Made by a program: the position numbers and the translations under genes
Assembly (NCBI GenBank): GCA_951406725.2
Contig: OX597829.1
Coordinates: 18,042,001 to 18,106,000, forward strand
Direction: 5' to 3'
DNA length: 64,000 nt
Source: Octopus vulgaris
Lineage: Eukaryota
Notes under the pieces: model-generated
Seen by the model: the letters and a program-made list of their open reading frames with translations, nothing else
Told to the model about the DNA's origin: nothing
Databases searched by the model: none
Shown: positions 17,991-36,566 of the stretch, in pieces
Numbering within the stretch: position 1 is the stretch's first letter
Layout of the letters: each line of letters begins with the position of its first letter

Positions 17991-18410
17991 TACTTATACA
18001 TACACATATATCATTATATGCATGCATATATACACACACAAAATACACAAACACATATGTGTGTGTGTGCGTGTGTATAGATATGTACTAATATTTAGGT
18101 CTGTATATGCGTGTGTGTATTTATTTGTATATATGTATGTAGGACGAGGAAGGATTTTCGAAACAAATTTCGGGATTAATAATAAATTCTTGTATATTAC
18201 ATCTTCCGTCTTTCATTTACTACATATATATAGAGAGAATGGTTGTATACTGTCAATCTAACACGAACGTGACAGTAGGGGGGTACACCACTGCTGTATA
18301 GCCCTAGGAAGCATCCGAACGCCTCCTGATGGCTTTGACACATTTTTCCCTGTGTCCTTTATATACATTTACGAAGGGGAGACAAACACCCCCGGCCGCC
18401 GAAGCTGCAT

Positions 18411-18453
18411 CTAGGGACACGTGTTTCAGGATCATTGTCCTTCATCGGCCTAG
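18411..18453 (-). ncRNA. Minimal type-I hammerhead ribozyme-like motif (U4C variant)
   Basis: CTAGG-CCGATGA-AGGA-caatga-TCCT-GAA-ACACGTGT-C-CCTAG: stems I and II pair, stem III is palindromic, cleavage triplet is GUC. Confidence 0.7.
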
Positions 18454-18639
18454 AGTAGCAGACACCGGTCAGCTGGTGATATTTGTCTCGACTTCGCAAT
18501 TGTATATATCTATAATTCAGTGAATTTAGAAATTCAGTATTTCTTATTTTGATAATCAGTGAATAGACTTCACTGAATTATAGATATATACAATTGCGAA
18601 GTCGAGACAAATATCACCAGCTGACCGGTGTCTGCTACT

Positions 18640-18683
18640 CTAGGCCGATGAAGGACAACGATCCTGAAACACGGTGTTCCTAG
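18640..18683 (+). ncRNA. Second hammerhead-like motif (right arm, slightly mutated)
   Basis: ctagg-ccgatga-agga-caacga-tcct-gaaacacggtgtt-cctag. Confidence 0.55.
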
Positions 18684-18912
18684 ATGCAGCTTCGGCGGCC
18701 GGGGTTGTTTGTCTCCCCTTCGTAAATGTATATAAGGACACAGAGAAAAATGTGTCAAAGCCATCAGGAGGCGTTCGATGTTTCCTAGGGCTATACAGCG
18801 GTGGTGTACCCCCCCCCTACTGTCACGTTCGTGTTAGATTGACAGTATACAATCATTCTATCGCCACACCACCGTACATGTCTCTACGAGAGATTTAGAA
18901 ATTCAGTATTTC

Positions 18913-19019
18913 TTGAAAACACCGGTTCTCGTCCGATCACCGAAGTTAAGCAACATCGAGCCTAGTTAGTACTTAGATGGGTGACCGCTTGGGAACCCTA
19001 GGTGCTATAAGCATTTTTT
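18913..19019 (+). pseudogene. 5S rRNA: 5'-truncated 5S rRNA copy followed by a T6 tract
   Basis: caccggttctcgtccgatcaccgaagttaagc..gttagtacttagatgggtgaccgcttgggaac..gtgctataagca-tttttt, with box A and box C present; roughly the first 18 nt are missing. Confidence 0.92.
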
Positions 19020-19082
19020 AAAATGGCGGTGCCCCAGCATGGCCACAGCTCATAGGCTGGAACTGGAATCAATCAATCAATC

Positions 19083-19267: not shown

Positions 19268-21241
19268 TTAGTTAGTTAGTTAGTTAATTTGGCTCAAAAG
19301 CAAATAGCAAGGCCATGTAGGGGGACATGGAGTTAAGTACAGGGTGGTGTTCATGTAAAGAGTTCAGGCCACTTGAGGTCCAGGGAGGCTTTGAACAAAG
19401 CGGTCGTTGGCATCTTCACCATCTCATCTGGCAGCTTGTTCCACGGATCCGCAACCCGGACGGAGAAAGCTCCTCTCCTTCGATTGAGATGAAATCGTCG
19501 CAGGTAGAGCTTTTCGGAATGACCCCGCAGCCGACGCTCCGGAGCAGGAGTGAAGAACAGCTCTTTCGAGAGGTTACACTTCCCGCTTATGATGTTGTGG
19601 GCGAGAATGAGATCACCACGGCGGCGGCGTTTTTCAAGAGAATAAAGGTCGAGCGTCCTTAGCCTTTCTTCGTAGGACAAATTTTTGAGACCATGAACCA
19701 GGCGGGTAGCCAGCCTCTGGACTCTTTCGAGGTGCTGTATGTCTTTGAGGAGATAAGGAGAAGAGGCTTGAATCCCATACTCCAATATGGGTCTCCCCCA
19801 GCGTGACATAGAGTGGCAGGAAAATGGCTGCTGTGAGCACTCCGAATGACCGTCGAATCAAAAACAGAATTCCGCGTGCTTTGTTGGCAGCATGGACGCA
19901 CTGGGCCGAAGGCGAAAAGGAGGAATCCACCAAGATACCCAGGTCCTTTACCTGATCGGTCCTCTCCAGCAGCAGACGACCCGGCTCGAAATCAAGTTGA
20001 GTTGCAGGAGTAGAGCCGACAGGCAGATGACAGCACTTTGACACGTTCAGACACAGGTCCCAATCGTTAGACCACTTCCAAATTTGGTGGAGGCATCGAC
20101 GAAGATCCTCTATACTACCGCGAGGAGCGACCAGTTTGATATCGTCGGCAAATAGAAGGGTGTGTTGCGTGAGGTCGTCGGGCAAGTCATTTATGAAGAC
20201 TAAGAACAACAAGGGCCCAAGCACTGAACCTTGAGGCACGCCACTGCTCGCACTGGAGACGTCGGACCGCGAACCATTAACTTGAACTTGGAAGGAGCGA
20301 TCTGAGAGGAAGGCACCAACCCATCGTACAATATCCGGATGGAAACTATATGCTTGAAGCTTGACAAGTAGTAGGCGGTGGTTTACCGAGTCAAAAGCTT
20401 TGGCAAAGTCCAATAAAACGATGTCAACAGCATCACTATCATCGAGGATGCGCGTCACCAATTCTTCCATTACTAGTAAGTTGGTCAAGCATGATCTCTT
20501 CGGCACGAAGCCGTGTTGGGAATCAGTGATCGAGGCTGTGCTTATCGAGGTGGAGCATCATACTTTTCTTAAGGATGGTTTCGAACATCTTGCTGATTAT
20601 TGATGTAAGGGAAACCGGTCGGTAGTTAAGCGGGTCTTCGCGGCACCCTTTCTTGAAAATTGGGCAGATTATCGCTGTTCTCCAGTCTGCAGGTATAACA
20701 CCCGTCGCCAATGACATATTGAATAGCCGTGTTAAGGGCTCGCAGATGACCGGAGCCAACGCTTTGATAACCCGTGGGTGTATGCCGTCAGGGCCGTGAC
20801 CCTTGTTGACATCGAGGCCTTGAATAACACGTTTGACTTGGTCCCGCGTGATGATCAATCGAAGCATTGGAGGTACCGATCTATCAAATGGAGGGGGTTC
20901 ACGACCATCATCTTGTTTGAAAATAGTTGAAAAAGCCTCGGCAAATAATTGACTCTGTTGATAAGGGTCCTCAATCGATACGCCTGTTGAGTCTACCAAT
21001 GTTACAATCTGGTTGTTCAAGCGGGAATTCCGATGGACATGGGCAAAGAAGGTTTTTGGATTGCTACTGGCATTTGCCGCGATTTTGTATTCATAACTGA
21101 AGCGTTCTTTCTTTTCAATTTTCACGGCTCGGTCTCGTTGAGTTTTGTACACCTCAAAAGCTGCAGTCGAATCCAGATTTTTGAATTCAGCCCAAGCAAT
21201 ATCTCTGAGTCGACGTTCTCGTTTAACCTTCTTCGTCACCC

Positions 21242-21243
<2 letters not shown>
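19264..21243 (-). mobile_element. 5'-truncated CR1/L2-group LINE (RT domain) with a (CTAA)n tail
   Basis: GPDGIHPRVIK, PIFKKG..NYRPVSLTS, LDFAKAFDSV, GVPQGSVLGPLLF, LFADDIKL, VKDLGI, RRRRGDLI, WNKLP; two frameshifts near 20520 and 19800. Confidence 0.95.
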
Positions 21244-21314
<71 letters not shown>

Positions 21315-21327
21315 CTGTGTGTGTATA

Positions 21328-21376
<49 letters not shown>

Positions 21377-21422
21377 TGCGGTGCATCAGCATGGCCGCAG
21401 CTCTGAGCTGAAACAAGAACAA

Positions 21423-21920
<498 letters not shown>

Positions 21921-23529: not shown

Positions 23530-23790
23530 AAAATTTATTCAAAAAACAGAGAAAAAAGATAAGAAAAAGCAACAACAACGTGACAATGTAGCATATGCAA
23601 TGCCTTAATAAGACGTTCGGAGAAGGAAAAGAGTAGTTGTTTTACGTTTCGAGCATAGCTCTTCTTCGGAAACATGGAAAACAGGGAAGTCTAAAGGGAA
23701 AGGAAGGGGGGGGGGGGGAAATCCCCAATAGTCCACGTGTAGTTACATTTTAAAGTGACCGGAAACCGAAGGACGAAGAGAAAGTGATGA
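23530..23790 (-). mobile_element. Penelope-like terminal repeat fragment with a hammerhead-like motif
   Basis: Minus strand tgttt-CCGAAGA-A-GAGC-tat-GCTC-GAAACGTA-aaaca at 23638-23674; ends in (TA)n; resembles 46020-46222. Confidence 0.6.
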
Positions 23791-26671: not shown

Positions 26672-27012
<341 letters not shown>

Positions 27013-27063
27013 CCACATTGTCGTGCATTTACTGTTTATATCTCGTTGAGAGATTTATTATTG

Positions 27064-27122
<59 letters not shown>

Positions 27123-27520: not shown

Positions 27521-27627
27521 AATAGTATATATCTTTGTAAGGTTTGTCGTATTTACATACCGAAATTTACCGGTAAATAATTGTTGGTTACATGAAAAAC
27601 CACAGGAAAATTATTTACCATTTTTAT

Positions 27628-27699
<72 letters not shown>

Positions 27700-27701
<2 letters not shown>

Positions 27702-28530
27702 AAGGAAATGTTAAAATATACATTATGTTTAACAATATCGATGGACATATAGTATTTGCAGCACCTTCTAGCATCGGTTCCATATCTCTTCTTGATTTTG
27801 AACTCAGAATCACAGAGAACGGCTCCAGTAGCTTTTACAGAAAAGCGACATCCAATTGTCTATTTGCACATCATAATTCATTTCTGGTCATCAGAACTGA
27901 TACGGCTTACATTAGAAATAAGATTCACGGAATACGCAGCCAATACAGCGATGCAGAAAGCAATAAGACGAACATCGTACAATTCCGAAAAGTCCTGATG
28001 GAGAATGGCAATCCAAACTCTTTCACTAAACGCCAGAACATCGCCAGACCACCTAAGAAAAGTCGCACGTCCAAGGACAACACTTAGTTGTTTTTTTTTA
28101 AATGCGAAAATTTAATGAAAAAAAAAAAGAACTGCTGCTATCCGCCGTGTGATCCGTAAGAAGGGACTTAATATACGACCGGCATAATCCAAACACTCCC
28201 CGCGGAAGGCATTATCCAAAAGCATGCCAACTTGCCTATCAATGATGAAGATGGTCCATCGTATTGTATAAAATCACATGTAGTAAACGTAAGAGATTCT
28301 ACATTACATGTACCATCTGACAAGTGTACATCGAGTTTTAAGAATACCTCTATGCTATTGCTTCTTCCTACAGAAATGCCATTCCGGAGGCATCCAAGTT
28401 TCTATTGAAGCTACAGGACGAAACATTGGGAACCTAAGAATCAAAAAAGAAACATTTTAAATTGCAAAACCAACCCACGTATTAAGACAAGCCAACTGCA
28501 CGCAGCCGATTGGCTACTATATCTATTTCT
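27700..28530 (+). mobile_element. Decayed Penelope-like RT thumb/linker region
   Basis: ISLLDFEL..FYRKAT..HHNSF..IRSQYS..LMENGNPNSF matches the PLE pattern FLD..YRKPT..L..NGYP; the downstream part is too decayed to read. Confidence 0.7.
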
Positions 28531-33645: not shown

Positions 33646-34639
33646 GGGTGTTTGGAAAGCTTTTAATTCTAAAATATTTAAAATATTTTAATTTAGATTC
33701 CTAAAATCGCAATGAATAATAATTTGCAGAGTGGCATCGTAAAGCGACAGCTCAAAAACAACCGACAGGCCAATGCGTTGAACGGTGTCCTATTAGAAAT
33801 AGTAGCCAGATCCTTCTTCAGTAACACAATCTGCCATATTGAAAAAAGGATAGTAACGTTGGCTGTATCTCCATATCGATTTCAGCAATTAGCATTCAGT
33901 TACATTTAACTCATTAACTCATTAAATTAACGTGACTCAGATTAATATGATTCTTCCCCATTCTGCTACTAGTTACAGTAGACGCCTGCCAGTATGGTGT
34001 ATGGTGCCAATCAAATCTGGTTTGAATTTCTTGAATTCATTGGGCATACCATCCAAACCGGGCGATTTGTGACTTGTACAAACGTTTCAGTGGCCGGTAT
34101 CGGCTTTTCGTACAACCTCGCGTCCACTGTCACTGGCCGCTGCAGACTGTCCAAGTACGAACTAAAATCCACTACCATCACCGCCACATTCGCTTTCCTC
34201 AAATAATCGCTGCTGGAAAGATGCACACATTTGCTCGGAACTGAGTGGCACGCGCCCGTTCCAGTCCGTCCAACACTGATCGTGGTTTTGTTGCCCATGC
34301 CATGCCATACCTCTATAGTTCAGACTCATCAGACGCTTTAGTTGCCGCGTGGTTTGAGTGTTTCGTAACTTATTGAAATCGTGCAGATACAGGAAGTACA
34401 ACGCTATCTACATAAATTCTGTCATGAATAAGACTAATCTTAAGTCAAAATGATGATCATAATGACGACGACGACGACAATAACCACAATAACAACAACA
34501 ACAATCACAACTATACTAATAATAATAACAACAACAACAATAACAATAATAACAATAACAATAACAATAATAACAATAACAATAATAATAACAATAGTTA
34601 TAATAATAATAATAACAATAATAATAACAATAATAATAA

Positions 34640-36566
<1,927 letters not shown>

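Follow-up and report, generated by a model that had tools for sequence, protein, structure and literature searches.

The foldback at positions 18233-18914 of the window, the 64,000-nucleotide stretch of Octopus vulgaris DNA analysed here, is probably one double-ended, head-to-head insertion of a non-coding repeat of about 364 bp. The repeat carries a predicted extended type I hammerhead ribozyme together with a likely promoter of the U1/U2 type, and the reverse transcriptase (RT) of a Penelope-like element (PLE) likely copies it in trans. At this locus the foldback is an ordinary copy, not an element with terminal inverted repeats, and the insertion marks of its family suggest that Penelope-type enzymes copy such animal ribozyme repeats. 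The unit behaves as a non-LTR retrozyme would if mobilised by PLE machinery, and is itself neither a PLE nor a MITE.

The inverted arms occupy 18233-18524 and 18569-18862, and alignment of 18236-18524 with 18569-18859 gave 280 identical columns of 293, in agreement with the near-perfect arms of about 290 bp described in an earlier note on this DNA. The absence of an ORF reported there also holds: read as a circle, the unit has a longest stop-free frame of 87 aa, and it lacks the RT and GIY-YIG ORF of an autonomous PLE. The limits given for the feature (18236 to 18859) need correction, as its right limit is 18914, where a 53-bp tail is fused to a truncated 5S rRNA copy. Structurally, a 5′-truncated inverted copy is joined head-to-head to 1.06 forward units beside a TA run. 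The unit measures about 364 bp across the family and 369 bp in the window copy (18546-18914); the left arm begins at unit position 24 and is without the promoter core, which the right arm retains. The parts are as follows.

18224-18232: target (TA)n run on the left; TA runs flank 71 of the 106 classified 3′ ends in the family
18233-18524, minus strand: inverted 5′-truncated copy, unit positions 24-317, with a "short" 3′ end and without the promoter core
18405-18461, minus strand: intact hammerhead of the extended type I (predicted), with the U4C core at 18448 and a palindromic helix III; cleavage is predicted to follow C17 (18416)
18524-18914, plus strand: forward partial tandem, the final 22 nt of one unit plus the full unit 18546-18914, with a "tailed" 3′ end
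18555-18563, plus strand: predicted proximal sequence element (PSE) core ATCAGTGAA, a 9-mer that the main U1 genes in this genome also carry, at -57 to -59
18613-18615, plus strand: predicted transcription start ATC; insertion base of LINE or ORF1-only elements in sister copies, uninterrupted in the window copy
18632-18689, plus strand: hammerhead of the right arm, with its U4C core at 18645, a G at the centre of helix III and the rare C17U (18678); it is likely impaired
18862-18914, plus strand: tail of about 53 bp, found at a single end only of double-ended insertions
18915-19019, plus strand: 5S rRNA copy minus its first 18-20 nt, with TT microhomology to the tail, ending in a T run
19020-19082, plus strand: common retroposon 3′ tail ending in (AATC)n, fused to the 5S copy

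Insertion anatomy of the repeat family

A genome search for copies of the arm, as the earlier note had proposed, revealed a dispersed family, with 84 matches from 40 scored of 2276 candidates in the 2.8-Gb genome. The exact hammerhead pattern gave 391 matches (control, 0), and that of a sister subfamily 232; contig sets of four organisms cover the unit, none of them recorded as RNA. Insertion anatomy was described for 79 insertions, the window copy included, which remained of 90 fetched loci once 11 duplicate fetches were removed; 30 loci had been picked for their similarity to the arm and 60 because their hammerhead pattern was intact, which skews the sample towards good copies.

The 79 insertions have 114 3′ ends, comprising 53 short ends (unit position ~316), 53 tailed ends (unit position ~2) and 8 elsewhere, and their 5′ ends are scattered over the unit. 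Thirty-five insertions are double-ended and 44 single-ended; among the former, a short end is combined with a tailed one in 28, one end is unclassified in 7, and two like ends occur in none. The window copy obeys this rule, its short end lying on the left beside the TA run and its tailed end on the right. TA runs touch 71 of the 106 classified 3′ ends. The longest piece is 813 bp, partial tandems reach 2.2 units, and junctions and arm lengths vary from insertion to insertion. Among the first 100 pattern matches listed, 17 inverted pairs were counted by eye, all head-to-head and 91-681 bp apart. In all 25 testable insertions the two arms were more similar to each other than to the median other copy, so both likely derive from one template or source locus. 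Inversion is a common insertion by-product with variable junctions. The family shows the marks of PLE mobilisation, namely 5′ truncation, partial tandems, inverted copies, a one-sided tail and a microsatellite target, and the repeat, as a non-coding unit of 150-450 bp with a type I hammerhead, falls within the definition of a non-LTR retrozyme. The non-autonomous, ribozyme-bearing retroelement proposed in the earlier note is supported, and the note as a whole is partly borne out, in observation as in interpretation.

The window contains a second, smaller head-to-head insertion at 26771-27069, which belongs to a distant family within the superfamily of the unit; one of its ends is short and the other tailed, and it retains no hammerhead.

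Long inverted arms with a TA flank could also be produced by a MITE or other TIR DNA transposon, or by a foldback artefact of assembly. A TIR element, the outcome named earlier as fatal to the retroelement reading, was rejected on termini that differ in sequence (unit position 317 versus 369), on the 44 single-ended insertions and on the occurrence of tandem units. An artefact would have to accommodate arms that differ at 13 of 293 columns and the same anatomy at dozens of loci, plus that of the second family at 26771-27069. Transposon and artefact together seem to us extremely improbable.

At the right end, the 5S piece scores 74.7 bits, shares 99% identity with arrayed 5S genes and misses its first 18-20 nt. 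The tail-5S junction is unique to the window locus (1 match with at most 1 mismatch), and a habit of targeting 5S genes was discarded on that ground. Nine chimeras of 5S and retroposon tail were found (L309-L317, including window 18915-19082), all with different junctions, and they are likely to be independent template switches; a 5S-headed SINE family is unlikely, given only nine exact-pattern matches, each with a junction of its own. Since the 5S start is intact in 7 of the other 8 chimeras, the foldback likely landed in a TA run before this chimera, removing the 18-20 nt. Template switching in a single event is an alternative origin of the junction.

Hammerhead fold and U4C core

The left-arm motif on the minus strand is as first described, with U4C as its sole core change, an 8-nt palindromic helix III and a GUC site. 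The broader claim that each arm bears a complete minimal hammerhead survives for the left arm as regards completeness; the right-arm motif has a central G in helix III and C17U (18678), which creates a GUU site, and the form is extended rather than minimal. C17U recurs in 1 of 68 other copies, and the right-arm ribozyme is likely impaired because U17 could pair with A14 of a partner. A relaxed hammerhead scan gave 4 motifs for the window and none for any of 20 dinucleotide shuffles; Rfam gave no hammerhead match at E ≤ 10 within 18200-19060.

The fold was derived from an alignment of 13 units of near and distant families. With a helix I of 6 bp, a 3x1 internal loop, a 4-bp distal helix, a helix II of 4 bp and the 8-nt palindrome of helix III, the predicted hammerhead has the canonical retrozyme form (extended type I), not the minimal form of PLEs. 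Conservation of core and stems across copies had been suggested as a check, and the helices do covary: 14 of 18 pairs change on both sides and 97% of cells are paired, compared with at most 52% in slid controls, the compensatory changes amounting to few independent events because the aligned sequences form two main clades. A measure based on further pair types did not beat shuffles (414/500). The predicted self-duplex of helix III has an energy of -11.7 kcal/mol.

Further conserved, partly covarying helices were observed downstream of the hammerhead (window 18613-18914 and the alignment), one of them a long-range helix with its 3′ strand in the tail; they may form a structure recognised by the RT.

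The core does not match the canonical CUGANGA, U4C being the majority state of the family. It was present in 83 of 89 copies, in 97 of the first 100 family matches listed and in 88 of the first 100 sister matches listed, and at position 18646 no other letter reached 15% in contigs of the four organisms. Cores of distant families read CUGA, CCGA or UUGA. These counts support the earlier suggestion that U4C is a recurrent variant rather than decay. Part of the original argument for it was the presence of CCGA cores at 23638 and 46088; minimal CCGA-core hammerheads do exist there, at 23669 (minus) and 46092 (plus), but they belong to an unrelated, very common family.

U4C "considerably decreases activity in vitro" (PMC3088659), and one could therefore hold that the element and its PLE-type insertion are as described while the ribozyme is too weak to matter, the repeat spreading through linear read-through RNA of long tandem masters or through template jumping and the fold being kept as a protein-binding structure. 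In keeping with this, core positions 3-4 vary among related families (CCGA, CUGA, UUGA), a young PLE family of the same genome has a further core change at position 6, and 5′ ends do not pile up at the predicted cut site (4 within unit positions 128-148 among 79 insertions). The lack of a pile-up fits circles and also an inactive ribozyme. On the other side, G5, A6, A9, the GAAA box, the A15-U16 pair, a non-G residue 17 and the palindromic helix III are kept across 13 sequences in two distant clades, and no array above 2.2 units occurs among the 79 loci. We consider a dispensable ribozyme unlikely. As to known cases, a natural viroid hammerhead with U4C is slower in vitro yet sufficient in vivo, according to work cited in PMC3088659, and 8 of 9 Xenopus retrozyme dimers are reported not to cleave (bioRxiv 2026.07.22.740005).

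Predicted promoter, insertions at the putative start and partner search

In this genome an ATCAGT-type motif lies at -56 to -59 in 24 of 27 distinct U1 upstream regions and at -57 to -61 in 18 of 19 U2 upstream regions, 6 of 30 U2 loci having been dropped (4 because a retroelement end lay directly upstream, 2 as pseudogene-like). The unit carries the same 9-mer as the main U1 genes at -58 (18555), counted from the base at which a LINE inserts. A matrix built from 12 U1/U2 promoter types ranked 18555 as the best site in the unit (7.7, next 0.6); of 127,920 positions in the window, 13 scored as well. In two distant families the motif lies at -59/-60; a third has it only weakly. The position agrees with that of a PSE, about 56-61 nt before the start, where the start is taken from the LINE insertion base. 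A likeness to the U1 3′ box (13/17) overlaps the PSE and is not kept in sister subfamilies. By these sequence criteria, the unit likely bears an snRNA-type Pol II promoter of the U1/U2 kind.

Sister copies are interrupted at unit positions 65-81 by a 5.5-kb LINE, which encodes RT and APE (RVT_1, Exo_endo_phos), or by a 1.7-kb ORF1-only derivative, flanked by duplications of 10-17 bp that begin at ATC. The LINE was observed at unit position ~67 of ribozyme repeats (L134, L139-L168) and at U2 +1 (L164, L167, L207, L214, L215), with the same register between motif and insertion base in both. ATC at 18613 is suggested as a start site by these insertions at the ATC of unit 65-81 and at U2 +1; the ribozyme repeats and U2 have little in common but ATC and the upstream motif. 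Of 30 LINE 3′ ends, 21 adjoin a unit of the same superfamily and 2 adjoin U2 +1, the enrichment at units among the closest copies being partly by construction because the LINE query came from a sister unit. Among 30 ORF1-only copies, 14 have an upstream half-site ending at unit 74-81.

Several observations concern these elements themselves. The ORF1-only element (L138, L169-L198, L226) measures 1.7 kb, has a CCHC knuckle and open frames of 450-480 aa, and shares the targets of the LINE. In more distant ORF1-only relatives (L185, L187, L189, L193-L198), a TATA-like box precedes the element by about 25-30 nt, and these relatives form tandem stacks; no histone genes were seen behind these TATA-box sites. 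Rfam gave no match at gathering score in 20 LINE/ORF1 flank loci, and the LINE 3′ flanks at L152 and L156 match neither U2, the ribozyme profile nor Rfam, and may be the starts of unknown short RNA genes. The 1.8-kb and 5.5-kb "long forms" were rejected as autonomous elements, being LINE-derived insertions with target duplications. Broken ORF2 pieces of non-LTR retrotransposons lie in the window at 19351-21557 (minus) and 34444-36233 (plus).

The tight association of this L1/Tx1-like LINE with the unit raises the question of whether the LINE itself mobilised the unit, by twin priming or 3′ transduction, in place of a PLE, and some LINE-unit joins do lack the upstream half-site (L145, L137). 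However, the LINE enters start sites with 10-17-bp duplications, whereas units enter TA runs and have two separate 3′ ends. Twin priming, moreover, inverts upstream sequence and does not duplicate the 3′ end. Mobilisation by the LINE is accordingly very improbable.

The motif at 18555 is the only predicted promoter of the foldback. Its predicted start, 18613, lies past the hairpin centre, so the RNA would have one ribozyme and no antisense arm, contrary to the earlier view that a transcript from either strand would carry a ribozyme together with its own antisense. That view was linked to a proposal in which the foldback is itself the functional unit, its transcript balancing dsRNA formation or editing against self-cleavage. 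A whole-foldback fold predicted at -555 kcal/mol with 95% of residues paired, and the frequency of double-ended insertions (35/79), are compatible with it. Against it, junctions and arm lengths differ in every insertion, the right ribozyme carries the rare C17U, and the head-to-head geometry means that read-through in either direction makes the antisense first. An antisense arm made first would zip up and silence the ribozyme rather than compete with it. Since only the right arm keeps the motif and read-through yields antisense first, regulation of this kind is unlikely, and a functional foldback as a whole is barely credible. The window copy is likely a dead end, with one promoter, one mutated sense ribozyme and a 3′ end that runs into the truncated 5S chimera.

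A link from the arm to a PLE RT, which the earlier note had proposed to search for, did not emerge: among 70 PLE loci in two groups (20+20 of a decayed group and 30 of a young, abundant family; profile matches L100 and L282 left out), no autonomous PLE with a homologous terminal repeat was found. The hammerheads and ends of both groups are unrelated to the unit, and unit-like matches at L097 and L278 are separate insertions. The young family comprises 14,725 candidates with open frames to about 1200 aa and the core change at position 6; the hammerhead type of the 23669/46092 family also ends it. A decayed PLE RT thumb remnant lies at window 27596-28087 (plus), and hammerheads of its group have a tiny AUAU helix III; Pfam did not recognise the remnant at 27710-28087.

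Proposed cycle and relation to known systems

A cycle consistent with these data would begin with Pol II and SNAPc starting at unit position 68. Although the predicted promoter is not part of the predicted transcript, 68 of 79 copies reach upstream of that start, a feature that a linear transcript of one unit could not produce; read-through of rare masters, with a promoter followed by two same-sense ribozymes, would be the simplest solution. Two same-sense ribozymes in tandem occur in 6 of 79 insertions, the window copy not among them, and a promoter followed by two ribozymes in 2 of 79. The U4C core would be attenuated but tolerated, aided by loop I-loop II contacts, which are known from type I hammerheads and may be expected here on that basis. 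The two ribozymes could then pair through the palindromic helix III and excise a unit-length RNA (after PMC4209133 and PMC7229834), which would likely be circularised. A PLE protein would nick a TA run and copy more than one unit; if it primed on both strands of the target, with its two start points separated by 53 nt, the head-to-head foldback would result.

A broader version, which we put forward tentatively and think somewhat less likely to be right than wrong, is that of a cephalopod superfamily of snRNA-promoter retrozymes whose hammerheads (U4C, C3U) are deliberately attenuated and make circular RNAs. A PLE enzyme would copy these from two programmed start points, one per target strand, giving the strict one-tail rule, and a LINE lineage would find units and U2 genes by their SNAPc-defined start, not by sequence. 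If true, this would give direct anatomical proof that animal retrozymes ride PLE machinery and provide a small substrate for the unsolved mechanism of PLE insertion.

How retrozymes are transcribed and which enzyme moves them are two open questions that the family makes testable. PLEs have been named as only a strong candidate for moving retrozymes (PMC7229834), a 2026 preprint argues their mobilisation from distribution and phylogeny (bioRxiv 10.64898/2026.07.22.740005), and PMC8557442 states that there is no in vitro system for PLE priming. The present family bears the full PLE insertion signature without any ORF, its one-tail rule, obeyed by 28 of 28 classifiable double insertions, limits how PLE priming can be modelled, and its precisely predicted start site and natural, fixed U4C core lend themselves to assay. 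The kind of element, a retrozyme, is already known; the fixed U4C, the predicted snRNA-type promoter and the strict one-tail rule distinguish this family. U4C in dimeric PLE-associated hammerheads may already have been described. No paper combining the three was found in the main texts searched, and a literature search on hammerhead, snRNA proximal sequence element and retrotransposon found none.

The closest known systems are the metazoan non-LTR retrozymes (PMC7229834; bioRxiv 10.64898/2026.07.22.740005), which, as far as these accounts describe them, share a non-coding unit of about 350-390 bp (as in mussel), a type I hammerhead, a palindromic helix III and tandem copies, as well as proposed circular RNA and PLE mobilisation. 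Unlike them as described, the octopus unit is mostly found scattered through TA runs as 1-2.2 units, its inverted double ends being of PLE type and its one-tail rule strict; it has a fixed U4C core, a promoter motif common to U1 and U2, and no homologous PLE terminal repeat found, and its circles are only proposed. Insertions of EN+ PLEs (Craig et al., 2021, PMC8557442) are alike in 5′ truncation, partial tandems, an inverted 5′-truncated copy, a tail at one end and a (TA)n bias, and PLEs also have hammerhead pairs on opposite strands, there 100-700 bp apart (Cervera and de la Pena, 2014, PMC4209133). Compared with the EN+ PLEs of that description, the unit has no RT/GIY-YIG ORF, a tail of about 53 bp rather than 30-40, and an extended rather than minimal hammerhead.

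Newt satellite 2 (Coats et al., 1994, as cited in PMC2220036) is a repeat of similar size that also bears a hammerhead and a Pol II promoter of the snRNA type; the likeness is one of published description to a promoter that is here predicted, and is likely convergent. The L1/Tx1-like LINE resembles the Tx1-clade elements Keno, Tx1L and Tx1-Mar (PMC4494074), APE-RT LINEs with a CCHC ORF1 and a fixed site in a multicopy RNA gene or transposon, and differs from them, as they are described, in targeting U2 at its first base and ribozyme repeats at the equivalent base. The viroid hammerhead with a natural U4C (PMC3088659) has the same core change as the unit; in contrast to the viroid case as reported, U4C here is the majority state in a family of hundreds and recurs in an unrelated family.
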